Part shown: positions 27,846-53,960 of the stretch, piece by piece
Position numbering within the stretch: the first letter of the stretch is position 1
How the letters are laid out: every line of letters starts with the position of its first letter
NCBI GenBank assembly: GCA_902573015.1
Contig: CACGIE010000005.1
Coordinates: 1-53,960 of the forward strand
DNA: 53,960 bases
Reading direction: 5' to 3'
Origin: an uncultured Candidatus Poseidoniales archaeon
GTDB taxonomy: Archaea; Thermoplasmatota; Poseidoniia; Poseidoniales; Thalassarchaeaceae
Made by a program: the position numbers and the translations under genes
Notes under the pieces: generated by a model
The model's database searches: none
Seen by the model: only the letters and a program-made list of their open reading frames with translations
Told to the model about the DNA's origin: nothing

Positions 27846-27909
27846 GTCCGTTAGGTGGAGCATCAAGACTTCAATCAGACGGTCAGGCGTGTATGGATTT
27901 GTCATACAT

Positions 27910-33232: not shown

Positions 33233-33343
33233 CAACGGATTGAGTTGGTAGTTCGGCTACTTCGATTAATCGTCAGACCGTAGGTCTGAATGTGCGTTTG
33301 GTGCGAATGTTCAAGTGGATTCGGAAACGCATCTCTGATTCTG

Positions 33344-36300
33344 ATGACAGCGGCTAGCTTGCAGAGGCCTTCTCGGCGGGGAATTATATCGGGATTTGTA
33401 ATTGCGATGATGCTATCCGTTCCACTAGTGTCTATTGACAGGGGTATGGAGAAATATTCCTTGAAAGATGGTATTGATATCAAGATGAATACGCAGGAAG
33501 AGTCGGATTCGACTTGGATAGATGGAGGGCAGCCCTGGCCTCAGTCAGGTAGAACAGCAACTAGGATAGCGGATGTCCCGATTCACTCTCCAGATGGCGG
33601 TGCTGGATATGGAGATCCTACTAACTCGAGTTCACTTATGTCGGTGGTTAAGCCGGCGATTAACTGGGAGTTTGGTTCATACTCAATTGGTACAGACTCA
33701 CTGGCTACTCCCATTGCAGAAATGAGTGGTTCAATAGAGATTGGTCCCGGTGCGGAGGAGAGGTGCGGAGGTAGATCGCTGTTCACCGTTTTGGTTCAAA
33801 GCGAAGACGTTGCTGGTTCCGAACACAGTATACTGAGACTCATAGAAGGAGAGGACGCCGAACTAGCTTGGCAGGTAGATCTTGGAGTAACTGAGAAAGT
33901 CAAGGCCTCACCAGTCGTGGTAGACATCGATGAGGATGGGAGTCCTGAGATAGTTGTAGCGTATGATGCAGGGGGGTCGTTGTATGTGGATGTCTGGTCT
34001 CCCAGAATGTTCTGCTCGGTAACTGGGTGGACTTACTCGGGCCACTCAGAAGACCTGCTTTGGACTTGGAGTGACGAGTCTTTGATGATTAGCAGTGAAG
34101 AAGGACCGTACACAAGTGGAATTTTAGGAGGCCATAAGCCGACTACCCAGCCCCTTCTTGCTGATCTAGACCTCGACGGTGATGCGGAATTGGTAATCGC
34201 TGCTCTAGACGAGATATCCGAGGATCCGGTAGTACTTGCTCTACCGTTGCAAACCAGCGGATCACCAAATACACTTTGGCAAGTTTCTCTGAGTAAAGGA
34301 AGCCACCCCTCCGACCCTGCCTTTGCACAAGTTGATGATGACACCGGATATGTGCTACTGACTACCATCGAGGCAAATAATGGAGGGATGTGGGTTTGGA
34401 AGATTGACTCTGAAACCGGTAGTTCGATTTGGCAAGGGGGTTTGTCATTGAACAACCTGGATGGGGATACCAATTCACCTCATGTTAGATTACCGGGGCC
34501 CATCATAGCCAATCTTGATTCTGACTCTGACCCTGAGATAATAGTCACAATACCCAGTGACGCAGATGGTTCGACTGCTGTGGATGGGGCTGAATTCAGA
34601 GGAATAGAAATTTCAGATGGTTCGCAATTGTGGGAATTCGAGGCAACAAATGGATTTGCCGATGCCCCTCCCACTGCTATTGACACCGATGGCGATGGGA
34701 TGCATGACAGAGTGTGTTGGAACACATGGTGGCAGACTACAACAGACAGGCAAGGTGCAGCAGGGTGTCACGACGTAGAGGGGACTGTGCCGAACCAGGA
34801 GTGGGCGCAAGATCTGGAGCAAAGCAGCGGCAATCCAAATGATGAGATTGCGGTTGCGGCTCCCATATGGATGAATATCGATTCAGAAGACGAGCCAGAG
34901 CTCCTAGTCTCTTATGGCAGATCTCTTTGGGCATTCGATGGATCGAGTGGTTCCCCAGCGGGGATTAATTCAGAGTGGTCAAATGATGTCGAATTGTCGC
35001 ACAGGACTTGGTCATCTCCTGCCATAGCCGATGTGGATGGCGATGCCACGGCGGATATTGTGTTGGGTAGCATGGTAGTATCTATGGCAATGCCCGACGT
35101 CAGGCCAATAACCGATGGAAGGGGAATAGAGTTCAACCCAAGTGCTCCCGATCCTGGTGAAGAAGTAACTGTCACGGTTTACATAGAAAATGCTGGAACT
35201 GCAGATACTGAAGAGGTAGTGGATGTAGCAGTATTTGCCAACGGAGAGAAGATTGGGGGAGAAGGCATTGAAGTTCTAAATCCAGTAGATCCGACAGGTT
35301 CTGGTTCATTCGCCTCCTTCAATGTTGAGTGGAGCGGCGATCTTGGCGAGCATACCTTCGAATTGATTGTTGACCCATATCGAAACTTGAGTCAAACAAG
35401 GTTCGATAACGACAAACAGATTAGAACCCTATCAATAATCCCAACATATAACGCGACTTTCGAGATTCCCACTGAACCAATCAGAGTCGATCCGGGAGAG
35501 GATGGAGATGCGCGATTTGGAGTCAGATCAACGGGGAGGTTGGCAGGAACCTGGACGCTTAATGTTGACAGTACCTCTCTACCTGATGGATGGACTTGGG
35601 AAGACGAAACTCCCGGAGGTATTACTTCAATCGAAATTGGTGTTGGACAGGTCTGGACCCCCTCTTTGAGAATTATCGCACCCTCGGACGCACTGGGATC
35701 AGATGCAGGTTTCCTGGCCCTGACCCTTACACGAGATGGAGGAGACGAGGAGATTTATGCAAATCTCCCGGTAGAGGCTAACAGAACCAGAGGCCTTTCG
35801 ATAAGAGGTCCGGACGGGACTACACAGAGTACCGGTTTTGGACTTGTATCAGAGGATGCTAGGGCATGGTTACTGATAGAGAATGTTGGAAACGCTGAGG
35901 AAAGTCAGATCGCTATTTCCTGGGACGGAACCGAATGGGGCTCAGATCTGAGAATCTTCGATTCTTCTGGATATGAGATAAGTGCCCTGACTCTCGGTCC
36001 GGGAGAGGAGAGGGAAGTGACTGCCAGACTCCCTGTACCTTCCGGTACAGCGCCTGGAGAGTCCGTAACCACCCCTCTGAGCATGTGTGTTGGAGCGGGA
36101 GATGAGCAGGAGTGCAGTCAAGTACAGTTGGAATTTATCTCTTCCAGGTCAGTGATGGATCCCAGTCACATCAGATCGGTGCCTGAACAAGGGCTAACCT
36201 GGGAAATCTCAGCCGACATCCCAGAGGGAGTTGGGAGTATGAATTGGTCATTATCTGATTCCGGAATGTCAATCCCAGGGTGGGATTGGAGTGGTTCAGG

Positions 36301-38974
36301 GCAAGTATCGGTCTCGGGTGACGCAATATCTATCATCGGAGATTCCGGGACCAGAGCAACTGGTTCACTCACTTTGGACCTTCCAGAGGATGCTAGGCCG
36401 TCTTTCCATCTCTTTGAAGACGATGGCTCGGGAGTGTCTGAGTCGCCATTGTCTATTTCCATAGAGGTATTGCAAATCCATAGGGCGGGCATGGATGTCA
36501 ACTCACCTACAATGCAACCTTACGTCGTTGACGTCGAAGAGTCCAACCTAGTGGTACTGAAGCTCGAGAATCCGGGTAACGGAGATGACTCATACTTGCT
36601 TTCTCATGAAATATTACTCGACGAGAACATGACTTCTGACCCCGGCATTATTGTTTCATTTTCCAGCAACCCAGTTCATCTCGGAGCAGGGAGCCTTAGA
36701 ACCGTCCCACTTAGCGTCACGCTGCCAGAGAGCACTCCTGCTAGAGTGCCAATTGCAATATCTTTCACCATGACTTCACAGGGCAATGTGTCCGTCTACT
36801 CTCATGAGATGATTGTTTTCGAGGTAAGACAAGACCATAGGTGGGACTTCGACCTGATTCATGATGGAGAAGAGATCAACGGAACGAAAATATTCCTAGC
36901 ACCCGGAGAAGTGCGGGCCATATCGATTAATGCAACAAATACAGGGAACCTAGTTGATGACATATCTCTAGATTTGGACACTCATATTTTCCCATTGGGT
37001 TCGGATTCGTCAGAAGGATGGAAGGCCAACGGGAGTTCGATTGAGGGAGTGGAAGTTAACGAATCTGTGTCTTTGGAAATTAATCTTGAGACGCCCGAGG
37101 ATTCGTGGAATGGCTCTATTATGAGAGTAGATGTTACTGGTATGGCCAGAGATGAGGCGATTATGGAGTTCCATTTCATGATCGAGGTTACCAGAGTTCC
37201 AGGTTGGGGAGTGTCTTCTTCGATATCTGATTTGGAGATAGATGCCAATGGATCAACCATCGAAATAGAGATTTTGCAGATGGGGAACAATCCTAGTATA
37301 CCATTCGTTTCAACTTACATCACCGGACAAAAAGGATGGTTGATCGAAGATTTAACCCAACTTCCCGAAGTGATTCCGGGAGATTCTACAACGCTGGAAA
37401 TCAACGTAACACCATCAGAAACTGCTAGTCCGGGAAGATCCGTAGAGTTACATGTAAGAGTTAGAGACGGCGATTCTACTGGATTGACAGAGATTACAAT
37501 GCCACTTAGAGTATCTGCGGTCCAGAACTTCTCTATCGAGTCTCAAGGTTCTTGGGCTGTTTCCAGCCAAGGTGGTCAACCTCCCGCAATGGTATCAAAC
37601 ACAGGAAATTCACCTACGACCATCGACTTCCACATAGAAGGAGTCCCAGATGGATGGGAGGCTGTTGGGACGATGCAAATTGTACTCGCACTGGGAGAAC
37701 AAAGGGGGATTCCAATTGATCTGGTTCCAGAAGAAGATTGGACTGGCCCTTCCGAGACAGTAACGATAGTAGCGGAAGATGCGAGTGGTAATGAGAGAGA
37801 AATCGAGCTTGAAGTGCACTACTCAGAGTTCTCATGGGCTAGCTCGCCGTACATCTTTGGTCAGAGTGGGGACTATGCAACCATTAACATCCATGGAACT
37901 GACGAAAGTACAGAAGTTCTTGACACTGGCAGTAGACTAGAGTGGAGCGAGATGGGTTGGTTGCTGCCAATTGATGATTCGACCAATGGAATCCTGTCCA
38001 TAGATGGAGGGGAACTGGGTTATTTCCTATCCTCGGAGTATTCCGAATCCAGAGTGGTCTCATGTTCCATAACAGGGGATTTCGACGACATGGGGGCTAC
38101 GTGCTCCGTAGGGAACGGAACCATGGGCTTTGATTTCCAAATACTACTAATTTCGGACGAGGGTTCTGTTCTAGACTACTTCTACGGTAGTATCGAGTCA
38201 AATCAGTCTGCTCAGCAGATAAACCTGAGTGGATCCGAATGGAAACCCCTTCCAGGGGAAAGGAGCGTAATAATCAGGGTCCTAAACGATAAGGGAGTGT
38301 TGATTGGCGACTTTGAGAGGGAGTTTGATGTTAGGAGGAGCGACTGGAACGTGGGAATCGGAGAAGTTGAATTGGTCGGAGAGGGTGCAGGGCAACAGGT
38401 CAGCGTCCCTACAAAGAGACTCAACGAAAATCTACTATCCGATGCGGATTGTATAATCTCCCTAAGTGCCGAAGGAAGCTCTGGGAGTCACTATTCTGAG
38501 CATATTGTCGATATGACCCAGGCATTCGTACCCGCGCCCAAGTTCGATCGGCCCGATGTGGATGACTCAACGGAACTTGTGATTACGATTAGCTGCTCTT
38601 TCCCATGGGATATCGACTCAGATCCAAGTGATGATCAGAAGACAATAGTACTCAGTGGGGGTTCTGCCCTAGAGGACAGAGTTGACGAACTGGGGACGGG
38701 TCTTCTTGCAGCTATTCTTGTAGTTGGCTCCTACCTTGGTTTGTCTTGGATTATGAGCAACCGCCGGGAGTCTGAGAGGATGATGCAAATGGCCCAGGCT
38801 GCAATAGACGAGAAGATTGCCGAGAAGCAGTCCGCACCCTTGATTGAGGAAAATGAGCCCGAAGGAGTTGAAGAGCACGAGTCAAGTGATGATGACGATG
38901 TAGAAGTAGTTCGGAATAAATCAGAAGAGGGTGACGAGTACGACGAGAGACTCAGAAGGCTTCTTGACAGATAG
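33344..38974 (+). CDS. Very large surface protein: FG-GAP (integrin-alpha-like) beta-propeller, a CARDB-like domain, many Ig-like domains and a C-terminal TM anchor
   Basis: Signal-like start MTAASLQRPSRRGIISGFVIAMMLSVPLVS at the ATG at 33344. Repeated DxDxDGxxE[IL]V motifs (DIDEDGSPEIVVA, DLDLDGDAELVIA, NLDSDSDPEIIVT, ADVDGDATADIVLG). CARDB-like EEVTVTVYIENAGTADTE. TM helix LLAAILVVGSYLGLSWIM plus an acidic tail. Confidence 0.85.
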   Translation: MTAASLQRPSRRGIISGFVIAMMLSVPLVSIDRGMEKYSLKDGIDIKMNTQEESDSTWIDGGQPWPQSGRTATRIADVPIHSPDGGAGYGDPTNSSSLMSVVKPAINWEFGSYSIGTDSLATPIAEMSGSIEIGPGAEERCGGRSLFTVLVQSEDVAGSEHSILRLIEGEDAELAWQVDLGVTEKVKASPVVVDIDEDGSPEIVVAYDAGGSLYVDVWSPRMFCSVTGWTYSGHSEDLLWTWSDESLMISSEEGPYTSGILGGHKPTTQPLLADLDLDGDAELVIAALDEISEDPVVLALPLQTSGSPNTLWQVSLSKGSHPSDPAFAQVDDDTGYVLLTTIEANNGGMWVWKIDSETGSSIWQGGLSLNNLDGDTNSPHVRLPGPIIANLDSDSDPEIIVTIPSDADGSTAVDGAEFRGIEISDGSQLWEFEATNGFADAPPTAIDTDGDGMHDRVCWNTWWQTTTDRQGAAGCHDVEGTVPNQEWAQDLEQSSGNPNDEIAVAAPIWMNIDSEDEPELLVSYGRSLWAFDGSSGSPAGINSEWSNDVELSHRTWSSPAIADVDGDATADIVLGSMVVSMAMPDVRPITDGRGIEFNPSAPDPGEEVTVTVYIENAGTADTEEVVDVAVFANGEKIGGEGIEVLNPVDPTGSGSFASFNVEWSGDLGEHTFELIVDPYRNLSQTRFDNDKQIRTLSIIPTYNATFEIPTEPIRVDPGEDGDARFGVRSTGRLAGTWTLNVDSTSLPDGWTWEDETPGGITSIEIGVGQVWTPSLRIIAPSDALGSDAGFLALTLTRDGGDEEIYANLPVEANRTRGLSIRGPDGTTQSTGFGLVSEDARAWLLIENVGNAEESQIAISWDGTEWGSDLRIFDSSGYEISALTLGPGEEREVTARLPVPSGTAPGESVTTPLSMCVGAGDEQECSQVQLEFISSRSVMDPSHIRSVPEQGLTWEISADIPEGVGSMNWSLSDSGMSIPGWDWSGSGQVSVSGDAISIIGDSGTRATGSLTLDLPEDARPSFHLFEDDGSGVSESPLSISIEVLQIHRAGMDVNSPTMQPYVVDVEESNLVVLKLENPGNGDDSYLLSHEILLDENMTSDPGIIVSFSSNPVHLGAGSLRTVPLSVTLPESTPARVPIAISFTMTSQGNVSVYSHEMIVFEVRQDHRWDFDLIHDGEEINGTKIFLAPGEVRAISINATNTGNLVDDISLDLDTHIFPLGSDSSEGWKANGSSIEGVEVNESVSLEINLETPEDSWNGSIMRVDVTGMARDEAIMEFHFMIEVTRVPGWGVSSSISDLEIDANGSTIEIEILQMGNNPSIPFVSTYITGQKGWLIEDLTQLPEVIPGDSTTLEINVTPSETASPGRSVELHVRVRDGDSTGLTEITMPLRVSAVQNFSIESQGSWAVSSQGGQPPAMVSNTGNSPTTIDFHIEGVPDGWEAVGTMQIVLALGEQRGIPIDLVPEEDWTGPSETVTIVAEDASGNEREIELEVHYSEFSWASSPYIFGQSGDYATINIHGTDESTEVLDTGSRLEWSEMGWLLPIDDSTNGILSIDGGELGYFLSSEYSESRVVSCSITGDFDDMGATCSVGNGTMGFDFQILLISDEGSVLDYFYGSIESNQSAQQINLSGSEWKPLPGERSVIIRVLNDKGVLIGDFEREFDVRRSDWNVGIGEVELVGEGAGQQVSVPTKRLNENLLSDADCIISLSAEGSSGSHYSEHIVDMTQAFVPAPKFDRPDVDDSTELVITISCSFPWDIDSDPSDDQKTIVLSGGSALEDRVDELGTGLLAAILVVGSYLGLSWIMSNRRESERMMQMAQAAIDEKIAEKQSAPLIEENEPEGVEEHESSDDDDVEVVRNKSEEGDEYDERLRRLLDR

Positions 38975-42266: not shown

Positions 42267-44645
42267 GTGGCATCGGAAGCGTCTCTCTGGAATGGCCCCA
42301 AGGGCAAGCGTGGTGCAGATTTTCTAATCGCATTCGTACTAGTTGCCCTTCTTTTCTCATTTGGAGAAGTTTCTGCTCAAGAGGTTAGGAGTGGATGGGA
42401 AGTTGTCGACAGCGGGACCGAGGAGAATCTGTATACTGCAGAGTACCTAGAGGGCGAGATATGGGTATTCGGATCTGGAGGAACCATGATCAGGAGTATC
42501 GATGAAGGGAGAACTTGGTCTGAATCTGGAATACCAGTTAGCCAAGATCTAACTTCTTCTGATTCGAGTTACGAATCAATAATAGTGGCAGGAAATAGCG
42601 GTACTGTCCTATTGATGAATGAAGGCGTCTGGATGGATATAAGTTCTGATCAATTTGGAGATATCAAGGGCGTTGCCCTCACTGGGAATGATAGTTTTGT
42701 TGTCATTGAGCAAGATGAAGTCTGGACTTGCACAGTGACAGTGGAATGGGATACTGAATGCGATTCAGCAATTGAAGGAGAGGGGATAAATTATCTCAGT
42801 GTATCATTCTTGGATTCAGAAAACGGAATTATTTCTGGAGAGAACGGGGCAATAATTGCATCCTCCGATGGAGGTAGAAACTGGGAGTATAGAGATGCGC
42901 CTAGCGAGGTTTCAACGAAGGCAATTATCGATATTGAATACTTCAGTACGATTAGGGCGTACGCGATCTCAGAAGAAGGGCACATTCTGAAGTCATCGAG
43001 AGAAGGAAATGTTCCCGTAGGATTTGTCTGGAGCATAGTGGATATCGAAAGAGAATACCCTCCAGGAGGCGGTGATGAGTTCGAATCTGGAGGTTCGAAT
43101 CTGGACTTCGAAGTATTTGGGATGAAGGTTCTTGGGCAATTCAAGTTCATGCTTTCTGGTCCGGGAGGTTATCTCTCCCTCAGTCTGGACGGAGGGAATA
43201 TAGTCTCTCAGCAGATGATTCCAGTCTCGAATGAGACTGTGTTCAATGGATTTGCTATGCTGAACGGTTTCACAGGGGTTGCCGTAGGAGATGGAGGAGT
43301 TGTACTCAGGACAGAGAACGCAGGATCGGAGGAGTTCGTTGGATTCGAGGTGATTGACTTCAACGATTTCGGACAATTCGTCGACTACTCCAAGGAGAGA
43401 TTGATGGATGGACTTGTAGCGACTGCTAAGATTGTGATTTTTGGAATTATAATGGGTTTCTCTCTAGGAATAGTCCTTTCAATGCTAAAGACATCTCCAA
43501 CTACACTCAAGAATGTCGCTCAGACCAATAGATTCCAGATTCTATTGATGTTCGTAGTTACTCCATTATGGTTATCTTTCCAGATTCCGATCTCAGCGAT
43601 TAACTCAACTAGATTGGGCAGAAAATTGAATCTGGGCAATCCTTTCAGCAGCGCATTGGGCTACTGTAGAGGGAGATCCTTGCACATCGCAGCTAGTGAG
43701 CCACTGAACATTATCTCTATTCGTACAATCGGAGTAATTCTGATATTTTTCGGGATTTATCGAATTTTCAATAATCTCGATGAGATTAGTGACCTAAACC
43801 TAGATGGTTGGGAACACATCTACTCGCCTATCGGGGCTCCTGGGGCAATGTTCTGGATTCTACTGGGTCTTGGAATATCGATATTGGGAGGTATATTTTT
43901 GTCATGCAATGGAGACTTCTCCATACGAGAAATTGAGTTCAGCAAGGTGAGTTTTTCTCTCGATCCATGGAGTATCAGGCCATTGAACACGATTGCAACG
44001 GTATATACGGACATTTTCAGAAATACCCCATTGCTCGTTCAGTTCATGTTCATACACTTCGGATTCGAGCTTGGAAGGAGATTGCAGGACCCTGGGCTAA
44101 TGTTGTTCGACTTCGAATATCTGGAGGGCAACTCTAACTTCATCACCGATATTTTCGTAGTTTACGAGACGAATCCCGAATCGCTGGCCTATGGTAGGCC
44201 GATTGGGGGGATTCTTGAGGACAGGGCATACATTAGCGCGATTTTCGCACTTGGTTTGAACTCCGGAGCATACCAGTGCGAGACCATCAGAGGGGCTATC
44301 GCTGCGATTCCCTCCGGACAGATGGAAGCCGGCAGAAGTATTGGCCTAAATTATATGCAATCGATGAGGCTGGTGGTAATGCCCCAAGCTGTCAGAATCT
44401 GCATACCTCCACTAGGTAACGAGATGGTCAACCTAGTACTGAACTCTTCATTGGCTATGATTATCGGTTATGCTGAAATCACAAGACAGGGGAAGTTAAT
44501 CGTCGCGACTACTTTCCAGGTTTTCTGGACTTGGGGAATGGTGCTGATCTCATACTTCCTGATCACATGGACCCTAGCACTCTTCCTCAGGTACCTAGAG
44601 GAAAGGACTAGGATTCCTGGTTTAGGAATATCAGGAGGTGCTTGA
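42267..44645 (+). CDS. Fusion protein: extracytoplasmic BNR/Ycf48-like beta-propeller plus a polar-amino-acid ABC transporter permease (HisM/GlnP family) with extra insertions
   Basis: Signal/anchor FLIAFVLVALLFSFGEVSA. BNR motifs SIDEGRTWSE, SSDGGRNWEY and SLDGGN. Permease motifs FRNTPLLVQ, NSGAYQCETIRGAIAAIPSGQMEAGRSIGL (EAA loop) and MPQAVRICIPPLGNE. Confidence 0.8.
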   Translation: MASEASLWNGPKGKRGADFLIAFVLVALLFSFGEVSAQEVRSGWEVVDSGTEENLYTAEYLEGEIWVFGSGGTMIRSIDEGRTWSESGIPVSQDLTSSDSSYESIIVAGNSGTVLLMNEGVWMDISSDQFGDIKGVALTGNDSFVVIEQDEVWTCTVTVEWDTECDSAIEGEGINYLSVSFLDSENGIISGENGAIIASSDGGRNWEYRDAPSEVSTKAIIDIEYFSTIRAYAISEEGHILKSSREGNVPVGFVWSIVDIEREYPPGGGDEFESGGSNLDFEVFGMKVLGQFKFMLSGPGGYLSLSLDGGNIVSQQMIPVSNETVFNGFAMLNGFTGVAVGDGGVVLRTENAGSEEFVGFEVIDFNDFGQFVDYSKERLMDGLVATAKIVIFGIIMGFSLGIVLSMLKTSPTTLKNVAQTNRFQILLMFVVTPLWLSFQIPISAINSTRLGRKLNLGNPFSSALGYCRGRSLHIAASEPLNIISIRTIGVILIFFGIYRIFNNLDEISDLNLDGWEHIYSPIGAPGAMFWILLGLGISILGGIFLSCNGDFSIREIEFSKVSFSLDPWSIRPLNTIATVYTDIFRNTPLLVQFMFIHFGFELGRRLQDPGLMLFDFEYLEGNSNFITDIFVVYETNPESLAYGRPIGGILEDRAYISAIFALGLNSGAYQCETIRGAIAAIPSGQMEAGRSIGLNYMQSMRLVVMPQAVRICIPPLGNEMVNLVLNSSLAMIIGYAEITRQGKLIVATTFQVFWTWGMVLISYFLITWTLALFLRYLEERTRIPGLGISGGA

Positions 44646-45383
44646 TTGTCAGAAATTATCCTCAGTGTTGAAGAAATGGAGAAGACGTACGTTGGAGGCG
44701 TCCATGCGGTCAGAGGAGTCTCGTTCGAAGTGAAGGAGGGGGAGTCATTGGCCATTATTGGCTCATCTGGGAGTGGCAAATCTACCGTACTTAGGTGCAT
44801 CAACCGGCTGATCGAGCCCACCCAAGGTATCGTGAGGTTAAAGGGAGAAAGGATCAATACCCCTGCTGCTGACGTTAATGATGTTCGCTCTAGGATAGGG
44901 ATGGTCTTCCAGTCTTTCGAATTGTTCTCTCACTTGAGGGTGATTGACAATGTTTCCCTTGGGCTAATTCATGTAAGGGGAATGAGCAAGGAGGATGCTT
45001 TTGACCATGCTCGCAGTGTTCTTGAGAGGGTCGACATGCTCGATAGGGTTGATGCCTATCCAGGAAACTTATCTGGTGGTCAGAAGCAGAGGGTGGCTAT
45101 CGCAAGGGCACTTGCGATGAAGCCTGAGGTCATGCTCTTTGACGAGCCCACCAGTGCCCTAGACCCAGAACTAATCGGTTCCGTTCTTGAGACCATACAG
45201 GGTTTGGCTGAGGAAGGGATGACCATGGTAGTGGTCACCCATGAGATAGGATTCGCCAGAGACGTTGCTGATCGTGTGATATACATGGACCAGGGCCTTA
45301 TTGCAGAGGAGGGGGGATCATCCATAATAGACAACCCGAACACGGACAGGATGAGAGATTTCCTCTCTAGCATAAATGACTGA
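44646..45383 (+). CDS. Polar amino acid ABC transporter ATP-binding protein (GlnQ/HisP-like)
   Basis: Walker [11 protein letters not shown]-loop, signature [15 protein letters not shown], Walker [12 protein letters not shown] and H-loop VVTHE. The TTG start directly abuts the permease stop. Confidence 0.9.
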
Positions 45384-45385
45384 AT

Positions 45386-46750
45386 CTAGCAAAATGACAC
45401 GGCTTCCCATATGTCGTTCGAATTGCTGGTGCTGTAATCGTAGTACGAGGTGTCGGATATCTGCGATTCTCCCTGTGTGACGGTTACTATGAACGAATAG
45501 CAACCATAGTCACCGGCGGAGTCGAACTCGTCACGAGGGACGTACTTCCCGAAGGTTGCATCGAAGACAGATCCTTCCATCGCGAATTCTGATCCGTATT
45601 CCCCCCAAGTTCCTGAACCAGTTCCGAAGACCCCACCCTTGGAGTCCCATGATGCTTCCGTGTTGCTTACGGAGATTGTAGGATAGGCTATTGCCACATC
45701 ATTCCCTTCCATTAGAAAAGCCTCTACAGTGTAGTCGGCAAAGGGCATCCTTGCAGGCTTTTCTGCGCCGGTGTCGAGTCCAGACCAACCTGACATGACT
45801 ACTCCAACCAGGCAATTGTCCGCATCGCCACTGCACCGGTCTGGATCCTCCTTGACGACTCCAGATGCCAGGCCGTCAACTCCTGTGATATCCCTTGAGA
45901 GGGCGTCTGCTCCAGTCCACTGAGTTGTATCCCAAGTAATCTGGCTGTAAGTTAGGTCTCTGGTTGAACTATCCCCGTCTATGGTCAGCTCCAATGTGTA
46001 AGGCGAGTCTGGAAGGGCATTCGTGGAATAGAAATCGTCGACAAATATGGTGATCTCTCCCTCTCCATTCCCGCTATCTATGGAGAAGTTAGCAGTAGAA
46101 GACCATACTTGCTGCCCGGCCTGAAGGATAACTATGGAAGCCTCCATGTCCCTATCAGAGATAGTGTTCTGGAGTACCTTGATGGTGATCGACTCGCCAT
46201 CCTCACTGTACTCAACCTGACCAACCGAAAGTTCGCCCTCTAGCAAGGCACCTAGGATCAGCGGAAGAATTAGCATCATTATGTAGGAGATTGCTACTAC
46301 GGATGCTGCTAAAGCGCTGGTCCCCGTTATAGCGAATCCGGAACTGGAAATGGAGAATACCCGCAATCTCCACATCACAACGGATAGAGAAAGTAGGAAT
46401 ACGAATGACATGACCAACGAGGCCCCAATCACGGGGATAGTTAGTTCGTCACCCGGGAGATACACAAGAAGAATACGTGTGAGGAAAACTGGCAGAATTC
46501 CGAACAATGCTACTGTCTTGAGTGATTCAACCAGTCCTGCTGCCTCTGGAATGGGTCCTTTTTCCTCTTTTACTGGATCTTCGGTAATAATGGCTACAGG
46601 AGTCGGGGTTTGACTTTGCTCGGCAGCCTTCTCTAGTAGTCCTGCTGATTTGCTAGCAGGGACTACCTCGTTAGCGTATTCACCGACCTTGGCACCCGTA
46701 ATCGGATCTATGCGGTCTGACGTTCCATCTTCTTGCCCCATTCCAATCAC
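45386..46750 (-). CDS. Membrane protein with a large extracytoplasmic C-terminal domain, unknown function
   Basis: 454-aa ORF. Four to five hydrophobic helices in residues about 75-170, followed by a Ser/Thr/Asp/Gly-rich beta-type domain. Confidence 0.55.
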   Translation of the reverse strand: MIGMGQEDGTSDRIDPITGAKVGEYANEVVPASKSAGLLEKAAEQSQTPTPVAIITEDPVKEEKGPIPEAAGLVESLKTVALFGILPVFLTRILLVYLPGDELTIPVIGASLVMSFVFLLSLSVVMWRLRVFSISSSGFAITGTSALAASVVAISYIMMLILPLILGALLEGELSVGQVEYSEDGESITIKVLQNTISDRDMEASIVILQAGQQVWSSTANFSIDSGNGEGEITIFVDDFYSTNALPDSPYTLELTIDGDSSTRDLTYSQITWDTTQWTGADALSRDITGVDGLASGVVKEDPDRCSGDADNCLVGVVMSGWSGLDTGAEKPARMPFADYTVEAFLMEGNDVAIAYPTISVSNTEASWDSKGGVFGTGSGTWGEYGSEFAMEGSVFDATFGKYVPRDEFDSAGDYGCYSFIVTVTQGESQISDTSYYDYSTSNSNDIWEAVSFC

Positions 46751-46862: not shown

Positions 46863-47861
46863 CTAGAAAAGACGGTTGTCCAACGGGATGACGTTTCCGT
46901 CATCGTCCACAGAAACCTGGTTTTCATTGGTCTTTCTGCCAATGGCTGCACCGGCCAGTGCCGCCATCATGGCAGTCCCCACAAGTTCGAATCCTGGCAG
47001 ATATACACCTCTGATGTAGATGGTCATCACCTGTATCTGATAGTTGGGGACACCTTCGGATCTGACCGAGTACTCGGAAGTCGCCTTGAACTGTAGTGAG
47101 AAGTACTTGTCTGTCCATCCTTGGTTCTTGGGCGTCCTCATCTGCACCCTGAACTTCTCCGGCGGAGCAAGGGAGTCGATCTCCTGGGATATCAGCGGTA
47201 GACTGAGCTGGAAGCCCTCGTCAACCATCTCGTCGTAGTTCTGAATCTCAACGTTGAATTTGTCCCTGGCGTTTCCATCGTTGTAAACGTCGAAGACCAA
47301 AGTGTAGTCGACCTTGGGCCTGAGTTGGATGAAAGCTAATTCGGCTCCGACTCTTAGTCGGCTGAATTGCTTGAATACGGTCATCACCTTGGCTTCTGTC
47401 GGAGAAGTAGCGGCAGTAACAGGAGCCCCATTCCACTGAGTCACAGTAGCGGTTATCGTTACCACTTGCTGGCCCTCTGGTTGCCTCAGGTCTGCCCTAG
47501 CAGCAACTTGGAAGGATGTGTCTCCAGGAGGCACGGTTGCCGAACCTGGGCCTGCAACTGAGATGATTCCCTGTTGATACGTGAGATCTACCTTCTCTGA
47601 GAATGTAGTCGGGTTAGTGAGTGTACAATATATGATTGTGGACCTCAAAGCGCCCGGATAAACCTCAATCGGGGCTGGTTGGTCACAGGTAAGCGAAACA
47701 TCGGGCGAGGTCTGGGCTTGTACTGCTGCTGCTCCTGACCACAGGCTCAGGAAATACACTGCCATAATCATCAGTGGCACTCTAATCGATGCACTCATCA
47801 CAAAATCCTCTGGTTGAACCGTATTTGAGGCTTCGCCCGAGACGGACGTGAAATGCGTCAT
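46863..47861 (-). CDS. Secreted surface protein with a PGF-CTERM-like anchor motif
   Basis: Signal peptide IRVPLMIMAVYFLSLWSGAAAVQAQ (alternative start ATG at 47798). Near the C-terminus, PGFELVGTAMMAALAGAAIGRK followed by a 22-aa tail. Confidence 0.65.
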   Translation of the reverse strand: MTHFTSVSGEASNTVQPEDFVMSASIRVPLMIMAVYFLSLWSGAAAVQAQTSPDVSLTCDQPAPIEVYPGALRSTIIYCTLTNPTTFSEKVDLTYQQGIISVAGPGSATVPPGDTSFQVAARADLRQPEGQQVVTITATVTQWNGAPVTAATSPTEAKVMTVFKQFSRLRVGAELAFIQLRPKVDYTLVFDVYNDGNARDKFNVEIQNYDEMVDEGFQLSLPLISQEIDSLAPPEKFRVQMRTPKNQGWTDKYFSLQFKATSEYSVRSEGVPNYQIQVMTIYIRGVYLPGFELVGTAMMAALAGAAIGRKTNENQVSVDDDGNVIPLDNRLF

Positions 47862-48058: not shown

Positions 48059-50746
48059 ATGCCTAGGTTCCTTCTCGGGAGCCCGAGTGAAACTATGGAA
48101 AACAACGGAAATATTGCATTGAGTGTTGGAGTAATTCTTCTACTGGTGAACGTCGGAGTCGGCGTATCTGGAGTTCTGGACGGAGTTATCGAGGGTAATG
48201 TGGAGACCGCAGTTAAGGACGGTTACGATGGTTTGGACGATGATGGGAATCAGAATTACACGGCCGATTTCGATGACGAATGGATGAATGCTTCTTCGAC
48301 GAAGGCATACTTCGCTAATTCGATATCAAATCTAGAAGAGGTTCTGGCAGAAACCTCGGCTCCCGAATACGAGAGGGTAGGGCCTTTCATCTACTACGAA
48401 AATACCACTAGAGAGGTCATTGAGTACGACTATGAAGAGGGCTCTATCACTTATTCTGGATACGAGACGTTCGAGTGGTGCGAAGATTGCACATGGGAAG
48501 GTGAGCAATCCGTATCTGGCGATACTGTCGTCAACCAGATCAACATCCTCTGGAACACTCAGAGAATTGGCGGGATGGGTTCTGGAATCGAGTATGGTGA
48601 GATTTTTGCCAAAGCTATGTTTGCGGCTCAGATGATCGAGTTCGACCTCTCGAACAGGGCTCCGAGCATTTGGGCTTCCGACGACATAGCAGCATTGGCT
48701 AGTGCAGCTGGAGGAGGAAGTTTAGGGAACATGAGTGCTGAATTGGGTGTTGCGGCTGCTGCATATTCGGATCCAACCGGTCAAACCAGTATGTGGACTG
48801 TTGCAGATGATCATGACCTAGCTCCAATCAGAAGTGCGTTTTACACAGCGAATGACGGATATGGGAACTGTATTGCTCTCACTTGCGATATAGGACCGGT
48901 CCTGATAGCGGGCATGGGTGCTCCTAGCGATTCGGTCACGCCAACTCGGGCTGCTCTTCTCGGTTACAATAACTGGACCTCCGCACCGGAGGACACCGTA
49001 GCATTAGACTGGGCTGTCTACACGATGGCGGCGTCAAAATTCGTTGAGCATGGCGGTGGTGCTGACATAAACTCCGAGACGCCTCAACTCAAGGAGAGGA
49101 TGAACGAAGTCAGTGGGTTGCTAATACCAGATCCAGTTCTCGAAAATCTCCTGTTCAACGAGAGCGTTGGCCTACTCACATCATTCGAGGTCGGAGGTAT
49201 TCCGCTCCCTGGAATGGTGGTTGGACTTCTCCTGCCACTCCAGAGTGGCGACTACTTCGGGGCCATGACGACTTACAACCTCGACCTACTCAAGATCGCC
49301 AGCCTTGCAGATTACGTAGAGCCGTGGGTCGGACTTGGCCTTACAGGAGCGCCGACAGAATTCGAACTGATCCTTACCGGGGGTACTGGAACAATGGTGT
49401 CCAACGAGTGGTGGCTAACGGCATTCGGAGACTATGACCCACTGGGCGGAGTATACATTCCAATCGGACTCAACCGAGATGGTTTCGCAGGAATGGCAGA
49501 ACTAACGATGGAGAAGTCTGATTTCATCCTAAACGATCCTGAGATAGGCCTCAAATCCTCTTTCCCAGGGCAGTTCATGTACGGTGAGCTCTCAGGGATG
49601 TCCCTTCCGGACTCCGACGGAGTTGCTCACACCTGGGACGATGCATACGTCGCAAACCTATACGGAATCTCCGAGCAAGAGGCGAGTGCACTGAGAGACT
49701 GGGTGTCAAACTTCTACTTCGATACAGTGATGCCCGTTCTGCTAAACTTCGTCACTGGAAACACTCCCTACTACTCCATGCCAATAAGCAATTGGCTTTA
49801 TGGCTGGAATGACGCAGTGAGTGCTTACTTCGGATTCTGGTCCTGGAACAGCCTAGAGACCAATGCCACATACTACGGTTCTGATGGCATAAGCACCGGA
49901 GACTGGTCCGTCTACAAGATGAGTACAAGAGGAGACACGCTCGGACAGAGGATGGCTCAGGGCTACATCAACTCTGACGGGGATGGGATGTGCGACTATG
50001 ACTACGACGCAAATGGCGATTTCATTGGATTTGACATCCCGTGCGAGGACGGACAGGTGTACGGCATGACCGAGCACCTGACTTGGAGGGCCCCACACAG
50101 GGAAGAGGCAGCTAGTGGTCTGCTGTCAGCAAATGCTGGCAACAATGATACCTCGCTGATGGGTACCGTTGGATCCCTGGCATCCCCCAATGACCCGTTC
50201 AACCTGAATGTTGCAGGGTACGCAATTGCCACATCAGAGGTTGGCAGTACCACCGAATACAAGGGAATCGAAATGATTGAGCACACAGTAAAGCTAAACC
50301 CATCCAATTCCCAGATTCAGGGCAAGCTCATTAGTTCGACGTCGTACGTAGACGTAATTCCAGGGGCACTCCCAGTATATCTGGAGGCTGACATTGATCT
50401 GAAGGTAGAGCCTATTACGACTGCTATAATGTATGGGAAGGTAAAAGTGACATTCCACTTGGACACTCGCGGACCCGGTAACCTGAATCCAGACATTTCC
50501 GTGAATAGTACTGAGTCGATGCCAGTCTTCGAAATTCATACCTTCAGCGAAATCGGTGACGATGACGCTGATAGCTTCAAGGCTTCAGTGACTGACAACA
50601 TGGGCACCTTTGGCTGGACAAACTTCGGAGGAGAGGCTGGTGCTCCGCTAAGTTACGTGCATGTTGCGATAGCAGCGACATATGCAGCATCGATAGCCTC
50701 GATTGGAATCGGAGCGAGATCGATGATGGGCCTCGAAGAAGAGTGA
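48059..50746 (+). CDS. Two-TM membrane protein with a large ectodomain, putative CD36/SR-B/LIMP-2 family homologue with a large insertion
   Basis: TM helices at both ends (IALSVGVILLLVNVGVGVSGV and VHVAIAATYAASIASIGIGA). The motifs YFANSISNLEEVL, PEYERVGPFIYYEN, QSVSG, NWLYGWND, VEPITTAIMYGKVKVTFHL and MPVFEIHTFSEIGDDDADSFKASVT line up in order with recalled CD36-family signatures. The confidence given is for the family call; the CDS itself is near certain. Confidence 0.55.
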   Translation: MPRFLLGSPSETMENNGNIALSVGVILLLVNVGVGVSGVLDGVIEGNVETAVKDGYDGLDDDGNQNYTADFDDEWMNASSTKAYFANSISNLEEVLAETSAPEYERVGPFIYYENTTREVIEYDYEEGSITYSGYETFEWCEDCTWEGEQSVSGDTVVNQINILWNTQRIGGMGSGIEYGEIFAKAMFAAQMIEFDLSNRAPSIWASDDIAALASAAGGGSLGNMSAELGVAAAAYSDPTGQTSMWTVADDHDLAPIRSAFYTANDGYGNCIALTCDIGPVLIAGMGAPSDSVTPTRAALLGYNNWTSAPEDTVALDWAVYTMAASKFVEHGGGADINSETPQLKERMNEVSGLLIPDPVLENLLFNESVGLLTSFEVGGIPLPGMVVGLLLPLQSGDYFGAMTTYNLDLLKIASLADYVEPWVGLGLTGAPTEFELILTGGTGTMVSNEWWLTAFGDYDPLGGVYIPIGLNRDGFAGMAELTMEKSDFILNDPEIGLKSSFPGQFMYGELSGMSLPDSDGVAHTWDDAYVANLYGISEQEASALRDWVSNFYFDTVMPVLLNFVTGNTPYYSMPISNWLYGWNDAVSAYFGFWSWNSLETNATYYGSDGISTGDWSVYKMSTRGDTLGQRMAQGYINSDGDGMCDYDYDANGDFIGFDIPCEDGQVYGMTEHLTWRAPHREEAASGLLSANAGNNDTSLMGTVGSLASPNDPFNLNVAGYAIATSEVGSTTEYKGIEMIEHTVKLNPSNSQIQGKLISSTSYVDVIPGALPVYLEADIDLKVEPITTAIMYGKVKVTFHLDTRGPGNLNPDISVNSTESMPVFEIHTFSEIGDDDADSFKASVTDNMGTFGWTNFGGEAGAPLSYVHVAIAATYAASIASIGIGARSMMGLEEE

Positions 50747-50816: not shown

Positions 50817-51893
50817 TTGAGGCTAGGCCACATAGATAGGATCAGGGCGATTGCAGTTCTCTGCATGGTAGAGGTCCACACAGCTGCTATCGTCCCTCCT
50901 GAAGGTATAACGGTAGGTCACCCAGCGGCTTTCGTCGCCGCTGCTTTTGGAGGGATGGCTGCACCGCTGTTCGTCACCATTTCCGGATGGGGGATGTACA
51001 GGAGTGCGTCCAGAAGAGTCGAAGAGGGGCATACCTCGGACCAATGGGCAAGGTGGATTATTCCTAGAGTGGCCCTACTATGCCTTTGCCAGCTGACGGT
51101 CAACGTTCTCCTTAATGTGGAGAGGGGCGGGAGGTTCGAGTGGCACACACCAGGAGTGCTCACTCTACTGGCTATCTCAGCCGCCATATGCCCAATATTT
51201 GTCAGAACCAGTAAGTCCCTGAGATCTCTGCTGATGCTAACGCTGTGTGTGTCCCCCCTGATACTTGGGGGGAACGCTGGGCAAGACCTCAGTTGGTTCG
51301 AGAGGGTCCATGCTGCAAATTTAGAGGAGTGGGTTGCCAGGCTTCTCTGGAATGGGACATACCCAGTTTTGCCTTGGATGTTCTTCGTAATACTTGGCAC
51401 ATTGCTCCATGACTTCACCCATGAGACGAGAATCAGGGAGAGGGGCATAGTACTGGGAGTCATTGCCACGTCGGCTACAATCTTTATATCTGTAATCGAG
51501 GATGTGGATTGGGCTCTAACCTCTGGAGATGCTGTCCTTACTTTCTTCCCTGCTAGTATGCCATTCCTGGTAGTTTCAGCGACTGTAGTCGTACTTTTGA
51601 TGAGGTTGCTAGAGGGGGGCGAAGTTTCTGGCGGGAGTCCCTTGTTGGGGAGTAGGCTTTCATTCCTAGAACCGGCGGGGAGGCTTTCCCTGAGTATCTA
51701 TGTGTCTCACTTCGCAGTTCTGGGCCTGGTGGCATTGGTCATGGAGGGAGAACCCAGGTTGTCCCTATTATCTGCATTCGCGGTTACCATTATCCATACA
51801 GCAATATGGATCCCACTGGCAGCCCTTCATGAGAGGAAGATTCCATGGTTCTCTTTGGAGGGTCTTCTCAGGGCGAGTCAGTCATCCAAGTAG
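50817..51893 (+). CDS. Polytopic membrane protein, DUF1624 / heparan-alpha-glucosaminide N-acetyltransferase-like acyltransferase
   Basis: The N-terminal RLGHIDRIRAIAVLCMVEVH resembles the R..(L/I)D..RG.A...M...H start of DUF1624/acyltransferase-3 proteins. About 9-10 hydrophobic helices. TTG start. Confidence 0.5.
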   Translation: MRLGHIDRIRAIAVLCMVEVHTAAIVPPEGITVGHPAAFVAAAFGGMAAPLFVTISGWGMYRSASRRVEEGHTSDQWARWIIPRVALLCLCQLTVNVLLNVERGGRFEWHTPGVLTLLAISAAICPIFVRTSKSLRSLLMLTLCVSPLILGGNAGQDLSWFERVHAANLEEWVARLLWNGTYPVLPWMFFVILGTLLHDFTHETRIRERGIVLGVIATSATIFISVIEDVDWALTSGDAVLTFFPASMPFLVVSATVVVLLMRLLEGGEVSGGSPLLGSRLSFLEPAGRLSLSIYVSHFAVLGLVALVMEGEPRLSLLSAFAVTIIHTAIWIPLAALHERKIPWFSLEGLLRASQSSK

Positions 51894-53960
51894 TCGGTCG
51901 ACCACGTCACGGGGCCGAACCATGTCTCTCCTGCATCATTGGACGCCCTTATCCTCGCGTAGTAGTCGGTTCCGCAGCATGAGAGTCCGGTTATCTCGAT
52001 GTAGTCGTCACCGACATCCGTACTTCCGTGGAATATGCTATTCGACCATGCTGATGGCTGCGAACCGCCATCGGACTCGCCGTAGAACACTGTCAGTGTG
52101 ATGTTGGTGCCGTTGTCGTAGGTCTCCCACGAAATATTTGTCGAGTTGGTCCCGGATATGCTAGGGGTGTGGAGGTCCCTCAGGATAGCGGGGTACTCGA
52201 AGTATTCACCCCTCAATGGGTCGTCCACCCAGACGGGCAGGTGATCCAAGGAGTCGAAAGTAGACTGGTCGAGGGGGAACCCCCAAGCCTCGTGATAGGG
52301 TGCCAGGTTCATTCCTGTGGAGTTAGACAGGTGTAGGACCCATGAATTGAACTTCTCCTCTCCGGTGTATGGGACCTCTGATGCAGGGAGGTCGTAGTAG
52401 ACGGAAAGAGCATTTGTGATCGCGGACCATGACCATTCCTCCTTGACCATCAGGAAGGTCTCAAGCGCAACCCACACAGACCAGTGAGATATATTGGCCC
52501 CGTTTTCGAAGTATGACCTAGTCCTGGAATCTCGCTGCTCAGGGGAAATCGCGCCATGCCCGGAGACCCCTACGAGGTCCTCCATTAGATGCACGCTCGC
52601 GAAGTTGCATCCGGTCTCGGTGGTTCCCGGAAGGGTGGAGGGCATCCACTGGTGGTTGTGGCCCAGCTCGTGGAACATGCCCCAATCCCCCTCCTCGGAC
52701 ATTTGGGTGACGTTGACAACCCCGGGGACGCTCAGGTCGTGTGCCATGAACGGGTATCCGGAGTGCATCCACCCAGCGGAAATCTGAGCATCGAAAACCG
52801 CCCTCTCCACTCGTGGCCAAGGTAGGAAGCCGTAGAGTTCGTGCTCCATTGAAAGGGCCTGGTCCCACCAGTCCATCAGGTCGTCGGGATCGTCGAGGTC
52901 TCTGATTTCGTGGCTAGGGACGGAGAGGATGAAATGGTCGCTGGCTATCTCAGCCCACGGAGCAGGGGAGTGGCGCGCGAAGTCTATCCAGTCTTGGACG
53001 TCTGTGTGGCCGTGGACGTAGGTGGGCGCCTCTACCGCGTTCGATAGAGTCGCTTCGAAGGTTCCGAGGGTCGAGCCTGGCTCTATTGCTAGGTAAATGG
53101 CTCCCCCGAATGCGTTTCCCACCTCCATTGATTCATCATCCACCAACCACCAGCGGTCGATGTCCGGATGGCGATGGAGCTGATCCTTCCCCCATAGGCT
53201 GTCGCTATGGGCCCCGACTAGGATGTAGGCCCCGGAATCCACGACGTGGCTGGGGACCGTTACCGAGACGACCTCGCCCGGTGCAGCATATACTCCCGTT
53301 GTCATCCTGACGTGGGCCCTAGCAGAGGAGTACCCGAAGTTGGAGGGGAGTCCGCTCTGATTGCCGTCTATCGAGACCGTCTTGGTAATGCGGTCCGATT
53401 CAGGGGGGACCGCTCCCGGGAACTCGGCGTGGCTTGGGTGCGATGGCAGTTCGCTGGCAGGTAGACCCTGTGTCAGGGCCGCCTCCACACGGAGGAGGGT
53501 GTCTGCGACGGGGTCCTCGCCCAGATTGTACCCGACGTCCGCCCATAATGTCCCATACTCGATCACCGTCCATCCCGTCTGGTTGACCACCTCCCTCAGG
53601 GATGACCAGAAGTTATGGAAGTCTAGGGAAACGACACCGGTACAGATTGAGAGGGTCGAGTCAGCGATCGTGGCATCCTCGATGGAGAGTGATTCTCCAT
53701 CTATCCTATCGGCTCTGATTGCTTCTATCGCGGCTCTGGGCCTGGAAAGATCGTGTGGCGAATCGGTCATGTCGACCTCGTTGTAACCCCAGGCATTTGA
53801 GACGAACAGGCCAGTTCTCTTGGCGATCTTGTTTCCGGGATAATTATGCGAGACATCCGTGTTCGAGTACGACCAGTACCACGCATGCCCTCCCATCACC
53901 AAGCCACCTCCATCTTGAAGGAAGGAGATGATGGCTGAGTTGTCCTCGTCGTCGTGGCCG
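51878..53960 (-). CDS. Peptidase M60-like (enhancin-like) zinc metallopeptidase, 5' end outside the window
   Basis: Zincin motif MFHELGHNHQW, with downstream Glu residues. The frame stays open from the called TTG (53902) to the window edge (...GHDDEDNSAIISFLQDGGGLVMGGHAWYW), so the gene is N-terminally truncated here. The C-terminal part looks like an Ig/FN3-type beta domain. Confidence 0.8.
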   Translation of the reverse strand, partial: GHDDEDNSAIISFLQDGGGLVMGGHAWYWSYSNTDVSHNYPGNKIAKRTGLFVSNAWGYNEVDMTDSPHDLSRPRAAIEAIRADRIDGESLSIEDATIADSTLSICTGVVSLDFHNFWSSLREVVNQTGWTVIEYGTLWADVGYNLGEDPVADTLLRVEAALTQGLPASELPSHPSHAEFPGAVPPESDRITKTVSIDGNQSGLPSNFGYSSARAHVRMTTGVYAAPGEVVSVTVPSHVVDSGAYILVGAHSDSLWGKDQLHRHPDIDRWWLVDDESMEVGNAFGGAIYLAIEPGSTLGTFEATLSNAVEAPTYVHGHTDVQDWIDFARHSPAPWAEIASDHFILSVPSHEIRDLDDPDDLMDWWDQALSMEHELYGFLPWPRVERAVFDAQISAGWMHSGYPFMAHDLSVPGVVNVTQMSEEGDWGMFHELGHNHQWMPSTLPGTTETGCNFASVHLMEDLVGVSGHGAISPEQRDSRTRSYFENGANISHWSVWVALETFLMVKEEWSWSAITNALSVYYDLPASEVPYTGEEKFNSWVLHLSNSTGMNLAPYHEAWGFPLDQSTFDSLDHLPVWVDDPLRGEYFEYPAILRDLHTPSISGTNSTNISWETYDNGTNITLTVFYGESDGGSQPSAWSNSIFHGSTDVGDDYIEITGLSCCGTDYYARIRASNDAGETWFGPVTWSTDYLDD

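Follow-up and report, generated by a model that had tools for sequence, protein, structure and literature searches.

The closest described relatives of the protein reported here are the eukaryotic CD36 / SR-B family (CD36, SR-B1, LIMP-2/SCARB2, insect SNMPs and Dictyostelium LmpA-C; Pfam PF01130) and the actinobacterial DUF3068/PorA family (LmcA and PgfA = MSMEG_0317; PF11271; PDB 7N3V and 7SHW). Barrels of the CD36 family enclose a tunnel beside the apex, through which fatty acids, cholesterol esters and other lipids are moved (PMC10715195), and the three-helix apex bundle is the ligand-binding tip of CD36 and LIMP-2 (PMC10715195, PMC8972800). Helical expansions at the apex position have arisen recurrently and independently among eukaryotic SR-Bs (PMC10715195). 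The DUF3068/PorA proteins LmcA and PgfA are prokaryotic, membrane-anchored and extracytoplasmic, with a CD36-like elongated beta-barrel enclosing cavities, and these lipid-handling CD36-fold proteins were described as exclusive to actinobacteria (PMC8972800, PMC9678360). The broadest study of SR-B evolution was restricted to Eukarya and traced the family to the last eukaryotic common ancestor (PMC10715195). Here we describe a CD36-like protein encoded by an open reading frame (ORF) of 895 amino acids (aa) in 53,960 nucleotides (nt) of contig CACGIE010000005.1 (GenBank assembly GCA_902573015.1; this whole stretch of DNA is referred to as the window). The host is placed in Thalassarchaeaceae within Poseidoniales (Marine Group II), phylum Thermoplasmatota.

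An original prediction, made from the DNA letters of the window, had named the product a CD36 / SR-B / LIMP-2 homologue in an archaeon, split by a large insertion. Pfam profiles, profile-profile alignment by hhalign and structure comparison by Foldseek all support it, and we regard CD36-family homology and fold as very probable on the combined sequence and model evidence. The archaeal proteins share with the eukaryotic family the profile similarity, the predicted barrel, the hairpin topology and a size variation that is centred on the apex helical bundle (PMC10715195). They differ in their host, in very low sequence identity, in an apex that exceeds the eukaryotic one by about 375 residues, is conserved throughout an order and has no known fold, in the absence of the metazoan disulfides and a strongly acidic composition (isoelectric point, pI, about 4), and in the operon of one subfamily with an ABC/FtsX transporter (ABC, ATP-binding cassette). 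For the DUF3068/PorA proteins the link to CD36 is purely structural, whereas the archaeal family is matched by the CD36 sequence profile itself; LmcA also has no apex bundle, whereas the archaeal apex is greatly enlarged.

CD36-like sequence blocks and predicted barrel

The Pfam CD36 profile, PF01130, has a curated (gathering) cutoff of 26.5 bits and matches residues 82-166 of the window protein over profile positions 53-133 (32.2 bits, E 5.5e-8). An alignment was assembled from the window protein and 15 relatives spanning 23-78% identity to it (alignment A2). PF01130 matches all 16 of these diverse members, down to 23% identity, the best at 70.5 bits (E 1.3e-19), and at the family level the N-terminal block covers profile positions 2-134. 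When the pieces that follow the insertion in other members were scanned alone, they matched profile positions 158-252 with E 5.4e-8 (32.2 bits), 9.7e-6, 9.3e-4 and 2.5e-3, and the piece of one member matched positions 355-443 with E 6.8e-5. Similarity across the whole ectodomain, with N-terminal, middle and C-terminal blocks in order, is thus found at the level of the family. Since the profile matches lie on both sides of the insertion and in profile order, the homology claim is not refuted on the terms that the original prediction had set, a profile match on either side of the insertion (for the part after the insertion, through other members). A chance resemblance is excluded on this sequence evidence, because the window protein itself matches with E 5.5e-8 and none of the 16 members fails to match.

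Profile-profile comparison by hhalign with the sequences of PDB 5LGD (CD36) and 4Q4F (LIMP-2), which had been proposed as a check, agrees with the Pfam results. The N-terminal block aligns to CD36 and LIMP-2 with a probability of 94.6% (E 6.7e-8), and the C-terminal block aligns over 223-257 columns to CD36 residues 156-468, reaching the C-terminal transmembrane helix (E 1.6e-4, probability 50%). The prediction had listed CD36-family motifs in the correct order, and the human strings that it quoted are correct: the CD36 sequence is that of PDB 5LGD chain A and the LIMP-2 strings are found in 4Q4F/4F7B. Three of its four motif blocks are reproduced by hhalign: block 1 (YFANSISNLEEVL..YERVGPFIY), block 2 (NWLYGWNDA against ELLWGYRDP) and block 4 (PVFEIHTFSEIGDDDADSFKASVT against its CD36 counterpart), corresponding to the eukaryotic FxNxxNPxE..GPYxY, LLWGYxDP and C-terminal xPxxxxxE..I..E.A..F. 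Block 3 (VEPIT against IEPIT) is not reproduced; hhalign pairs PGALPVY with EGRPVY and FHLDTRG with TYLDIEP instead, and the register is uncertain there. In a phmmer search of a library of 1.84 billion proteins the window protein gave one direct eukaryotic match, a beetle SNMP2-like protein (E 3.9e-5), which is a true member of the CD36 family (two CD36 domains, Pfam E 2e-240). No meaningful match to PDB sequences was obtained by phmmer of the protein or by hmmsearch with profiles of its close homologues, and an NCBIfam scan of the protein gave no match.

An AlphaFold2 model of the full protein, built on alignment A2, has a mean predicted local distance difference test (pLDDT) score of 73.7 and a predicted template modelling (pTM) score of 0.67. 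It has beta-strands at residues 77-161 and 571-831, helices between them and one helix at each terminus, and the ectodomain is accordingly modelled as a CD36-type asymmetric beta-barrel. When the model was compared with PDB by Foldseek, as the prediction had suggested, the top 13 neighbours were all CD36 (5LGD) or LIMP-2 (4F7B, 4Q4B, 4TW0, 9FJF, 5UPH), with E 6e-6 to 1.4e-3, probability 1.00 and target-normalised TM-scores of 0.35-0.51. Mycobacterium smegmatis LmcA comes next, below all CD36 and LIMP-2 entries (E 8e-3 to 2e-2, target-normalised TM-score about 0.3), which makes DUF3068/PorA the second-best structural group.

The ORF was found exactly where it had been placed (Table 1). Its translation probably starts at the ATG at 48095 (Met13), giving 883 aa, rather than at the first ATG: this is where family conservation sets in, with the first columns that are invariant in close relatives, and where distant homologues have their start; the start-codon context was also considered, and gene callers produce the 883-aa form as well. 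The protein is strongly acidic (pI about 4.05) with six cysteines, and the GC content of its gene is that of the local surroundings. The claimed CD36 topology, with one transmembrane helix at each extreme end, is borne out by Kyte-Doolittle (KD) hydropathy in the 16 members and by the terminal helices of the model. Both terminal hydrophobic segments are present in every member (C-terminal KD 1.56-2.7; 1.67-2.7 in the other 15), and each is followed by a short tail that begins basic and then turns acidic. The predicted arrangement is a hairpin, with a large extracytoplasmic domain between the two helices and short cytoplasmic tails; the orientation with the tails inside is deduced from the basic residues flanking the helices.

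The apex insertion domain

CD36-like sequence ends at about residue 166 (CD36 residue 138) and restarts at about residue 567 (CD36 residue 166). The insertion of about 400 residues that had been predicted, at residues ~175-575, is therefore confirmed in size and lies at 167-566; its CD36 counterpart had been put at about 60 residues and is about 27, so that the net gain is about 375. The CD36-type three-helix apex bundle is not present and is replaced by this domain, and its absence does not exclude membership of the CD36 family, because eukaryotic members also deviate at the apex (PMC10715195). In the eukaryotic SR-Bs with an expanded apex (Aurelia SR-B, Dictyostelium LmpA, Phytophthora SR-B_1 and Tetrahymena SR-B_2; PMC10715195) a helical expansion occurs at the same place on a conserved barrel. 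Those expansions are independent, lineage-specific and in some cases low-confidence models, whereas the archaeal one is conserved and confidently modelled as one compact domain.

Conservation of the insertion region extends through the whole family, at identities from 23% to 100%. A model of this region by itself (alignment A5) shows one compact domain, for the most part helical, and has pLDDT 83.7 and pTM 0.82. Foldseek of this domain against PDB found no significant neighbour (best E 0.32), and its matches, to membrane transporters and Taq polymerase at TM-scores of about 0.1, are noise. The insertion alone has no Pfam match, its profile has no match among PDB sequences by hmmsearch, and no protein outside the family with this domain turned up in a search of 1.84 billion representative proteins. 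At least two parts can be distinguished in the insertion, since the subfamily represented by P0151 (730 aa) does not have about 145 residues of it.

The apex domain contains a conserved glycine-rich hydrophobic beta-hairpin and helix, LTSFEVGGIPLPGMVVGLLLPLQ, at 49175-49243 (residues 373-395), with KD of about 1.6 and with invariant G371, L373 and G385. This element might make contact with lipids or with the membrane.

Distribution, proposed function and alternative readings

Homologues with 90-99% identity, the closest ones, stem from marine metagenomes and from metagenome-assembled genomes (MAGs) labelled Candidatus Poseidoniales or Thalassarchaeaceae. When one genome per GTDB species was scanned, which bears on the prevalence question raised by the original prediction, at least 252 stretches encoding a relative were found; the best 80 of the 252 were examined and almost all are Poseidoniales/Thalassarchaeaceae MAGs. 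Two of the best 80 carry bacterial labels (L052 and L060; Pedosphaera sp. ARS72 and Gemmatimonadetes bacterium RS373), yet they show the archaeal synteny and are probably mis-binned. In the search of 1.84 billion representative proteins, 104 related clusters were found, about 16 of them full-length (730-969 aa). No prokaryotic relative without the insertion was found in this exhaustive search, nor in one with the most divergent member as query. That at least 252 species-level genomes have kept the family speaks for a function under selection. In the lineage of L067, L072 and L074 the gene occurs as a pair: L067:3266-8541 holds two divergently transcribed CD36-like paralogues, one of 870 aa and one of 869 aa (identity to the window protein 28% and 33%), which share an intergenic region of about 50 nt, and true divergent pairs were seen only in this lineage.

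The archaeal host had also been claimed, and it holds: on Thalassarchaeaceae/Poseidoniales contigs the gene has a conserved syntenic setting, and eukaryotic contamination is ruled out because the flanking genes are syntenic in about 40 loci on contigs of up to 1.6 Mb. A spurious resemblance to CD36, compositional or by chance, or eukaryotic contamination of the archaeal bins would fit the short Pfam match of the window protein and the failure of phmmer and the family profile to find PDB sequences. We consider either very improbable and effectively refuted on the sequence and model evidence, given the PF01130 matches of all 16 divergent members on both sides of the insertion, a Foldseek list headed by CD36 and LIMP-2 only, the local GC content and an archaeal synteny that extends over contigs of 1.6-1.86 Mb.

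In the surface ocean, Marine Group II belongs to the most abundant groups of archaea, and its members are thought to live on proteins and lipids; we know of no fatty-acid or lipid uptake route described for them. A conserved surface protein with a predicted CD36 lipid-tunnel fold is a concrete and testable candidate for such a route. Fatty-acid degradation is encoded by all Poseidoniales genera (PMC6461757), and their beta-oxidation genes are highly transcribed (PMC9723583). Because CD36 tunnels move lipids and Poseidoniales degrade fatty acids, a surface lipid conduit with a ligand-capturing apex appears the most likely role. We propose, with the balance tilted slightly in favour, that the protein is a divergent archaeal CD36 member serving as such a conduit. 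By analogy, a role in handling lipids or other hydrophobic molecules likewise seems a little better supported than its negation, and uptake of fatty acids or lipids specifically is plausible, though rather less likely than not. In the proposed mechanism the protein would be anchored in the cytoplasmic membrane as a hairpin with both short tails inside, the enlarged apex would capture a hydrophobic ligand outside the cell, and the barrel would pass it between the exterior and the membrane's outer leaflet, like the internal tunnel of CD36, SR-B1 and LIMP-2. Marine organic matter would most likely provide the cargo, as free fatty acids or other lipids, and the captured lipids would feed the beta-oxidation pathway.

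A number of observations weigh against the proposal. The Pfam match of the window protein is short (85 residues, profile positions 53-133 only) and its C-terminal third alone has no Pfam match, so that the case for C-terminal homology is made by the homologues, a profile-profile alignment at 50% probability and the predicted structure. The Foldseek TM-scores are modest (0.35-0.51) with a large root-mean-square deviation, and barrel residues 600-670 are modelled at a pLDDT of only 50-60. The three ectodomain disulfides of mammalian and insect CD36 are not conserved in the 16-member alignment, in which no cysteine is invariant and some members have a single one; these disulfides are a metazoan feature and do not define the wider CD36 family (PMC10715195). 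No genes for fatty-acid activation or beta-oxidation were found in the window or in the related loci examined. Finally, linkage to a transporter of the MacB/Lol type in one subfamily hints at export rather than uptake, since such transporters usually extract or expel their substrates.

This linkage concerns a short-insertion subfamily (P0151 type; 14 clusters, 725-742 aa), in which the CD36-like gene is followed, with 6-13 nt spacing or overlap, by genes for an ABC ATPase and for a permease of 808 aa with an FtsX domain (MacB/LolCDE type). This operon is kept to about 69% identity (L081:8001-13311, L084:35-5387 and L086:6001-11308) and hints at a coupling of the CD36-like barrel to the ABC transporter; it is absent near the window gene and in 80 other loci. 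The same fold might therefore serve lipid trafficking outward or within the envelope, the barrel taking transporter-extracted lipids, lipid-linked glycans or lipid-anchored proteins to the surface or S-layer. Such a role would parallel actinobacterial CD36-fold LmcA/PgfA, which work with MmpL3 and act in periplasmic trafficking of lipids and lipoglycans (PMC9678360, PMC8972800), and together the operon and this parallel favour envelope trafficking or export, at least in the short-insertion subfamily. LmcA is the next structural neighbour after CD36 and LIMP-2, two members have weak PorA/DUF3068 Pfam matches in the C-terminal barrel, and the next gene downstream, in the window as in about 30 related loci, encodes a membrane acyltransferase-3. 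The PorA scores, however, fall far short of the cutoff (PF11271 scores 15-17.6 bits against P0142 and P0151, cutoff 29.5, and does not match the window protein), the ABC/FtsX linkage is confined to that one small subfamily, some lineages have other genes between the CD36-like and acyltransferase genes while others do not have the acyltransferase gene there, and the sequence similarity is to eukaryotic CD36 and not to the actinobacterial family. We hold this reading to be unlikely, while giving it more weight than the one that follows.

LIMP-2 binds glucocerebrosidase (GCase). The apex is the protein-ligand site in CD36 (5LGD, with PfEMP1) as well as in LIMP-2 (9FJF, with GCase), and a protein of this fold could act mainly as a surface receptor or adhesin, its apex binding a macromolecular partner (particles, algal or bacterial surfaces, or a secreted enzyme) without bulk lipid transport. 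Apex expansions have been proposed to tune ligand specificity (PMC10715195), and here the apex domain is the largest part of the protein and well conserved, and many secreted and surface proteins are encoded nearby (an M60-like peptidase, subtilases, giant adhesin-like proteins). We judge this role improbable: the barrel blocks are the most conserved part held in common with eukaryotes, which suggests that the barrel function has been kept, no partner is identifiable, and binding by the apex is in any case compatible with lipid transfer.

An archaeal branch of CD36 bears on the history of the family. The original prediction had stated that the CD36 family was characterised only in eukaryotes and that an archaeal member would be new. 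The former does not stand as worded, since the CD36-fold LmcA/PgfA have been published (PMC8972800, PMC9678360) and NCBI already labels one archaeal member "CD36 family protein" (MCH2637922.1), most others being "hypothetical protein"; precomputed PF01130 matches to these proteins are also in databases. The latter stands in part: a literature search on archaeal or prokaryotic CD36 found no paper describing these archaeal proteins, while the NCBI label, the actinobacterial CD36-fold and the eukaryotic apex expansions precede it. What is new, as far as sequence and models indicate, is a branch of the CD36 family that is archaeal, extends over an order and carries a large, conserved apex domain whose fold has no known counterpart. 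This domain of about 400 residues, with no structural relative in PDB, sits where CD36-family proteins bind their ligands. Being detectable by sequence, the archaeal branch is a possible outgroup, and the question arises whether the family arose before eukaryotes or passed from one domain to another. The very low similarity to any eukaryotic sequence and the deep divergence and paralogy within Poseidoniales argue against a recent transfer from a eukaryote. The boldest version, which we offer as speculation and think unlikely, is that Archaea would here have their first known conduit for the uptake of lipids or fatty acids, that SR-B/CD36, given the order-wide and deeply diverged distribution, would predate the last eukaryotic common ancestor or reflect an early exchange between eukaryotes and marine archaea, that the archaeal branch would then be the outgroup so far lacking in work on SR-B evolution, and that the apex would be a new fold capturing marine lipids.

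Gene neighbourhood

The gene order around the CD36-like gene in the window is 454-aa protein (−), 332-aa protein (−), tRNA-Met (−), CD36-like (+), acyltransferase-3 (+) and M60-like peptidase (−). It is kept in relatives down to about 44% identity, with inserted genes in some lineages, and is lost in the most distant ones. The acyltransferase-3 gene directly adjoins the CD36-like gene in roughly 30 related loci, is separated from it in others and is absent near the most distant. The ABC pair of 792 and 245 aa is kept upstream in about 20 related loci; we considered whether these two genes are the ABC/FtsX pair of the P0151 operon and rejected this, the permease being BPD_transp_1 and not FtsX. 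The predicted giant surface proteins and the subtilases fit a particle- and protein-degrading lifestyle.

Table 1. Coordinates of the CD36-like gene, its parts and neighbouring features in the window
Feature	Coordinates	Strand	Basis or remarks
Predicted giant surface protein, 1069 aa, bacterial TSP3 repeats	4673-7885	−	
Predicted giant surface protein, 2406 aa	14526-21746	−	
Two subtilases	23301-24458 and 25953-27950		
Predicted giant surface protein, 1894 aa, with CARDB, FG-GAP and Ig-like domains	33290-38974	+	
792-aa fusion of a BNR/sortilin-like beta-propeller ectodomain and a type-I ABC importer permease (BPD_transp_1), followed immediately by its 245-aa ABC ATPase	42267-45383	+	
454-aa and 332-aa proteins with hydrophobic segments	45386-46750, 46863-47861	−	No Pfam match; syntenic in >40 loci; between ABC pair and CD36-like gene
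CD36-like protein, complete ORF	48059..50746	+	ORF listing; 895 aa from first ATG
Predicted N-terminal transmembrane helix or signal anchor (about residues 17-40)	48107..48178	+	KD hydropathy 2.36 at residue 19; in all 16 members; helical in AlphaFold2 model
CD36 N-terminal block (about residues 71-166), first long barrel beta-strands, with YFANSISNLEEVL and YERVGPFIY	48269..48556	+	PF01130; hhalign; model strands 77-161
Apex insertion domain (about residues 167-566), mostly alpha-helical, in place of the CD36 three-helix apex (CD36 residues 139-165)	48557..49756	+	Pfam and hhalign boundaries
CD36 middle and C-terminal blocks (about residues 567-845), NWLYGWND and remaining strands up to PVFEIHTFSEIGDDDADSFKASVT	49757..50593	+	Pfam matches of homologues; hhalign; model strands 571-831
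Predicted C-terminal transmembrane helix (about residues 864-886)	50648..50716	+	KD 1.56 at residue 867; helix 864-893 in AlphaFold2 model; aligns to CD36 C-terminal transmembrane helix
Short acidic tail, predicted cytoplasmic, ARSMMGLEEE	50717..50743	+	After C-terminal transmembrane helix; similar in all members
Membrane acyltransferase-3 / HGSNAT-like gene	50817-51893	+	70 nt downstream of CD36-like gene
M60-like (enhancin-like) metallopeptidase with N-terminal domain	51878-53902	−	Convergent with acyltransferase, 16-nt end overlap; synteny in 33 loci

Tandem paralogues were considered as the content of gaps beside the gene in some relatives (e.g. L018) and rejected; the genes found there encode a TctA-family protein, a protein with phospholipase D (PLD)-like and lamin-tail domains, and a pyrimidine-nucleoside phosphorylase. 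The second of these, at L018:8699-11776 directly downstream of the CD36-like gene, has 1025 aa, combines two PLD-like domains with lamin-tail domains and is of the secreted phospholipase D or nuclease type; the pyrimidine-nucleoside phosphorylase gene follows it.

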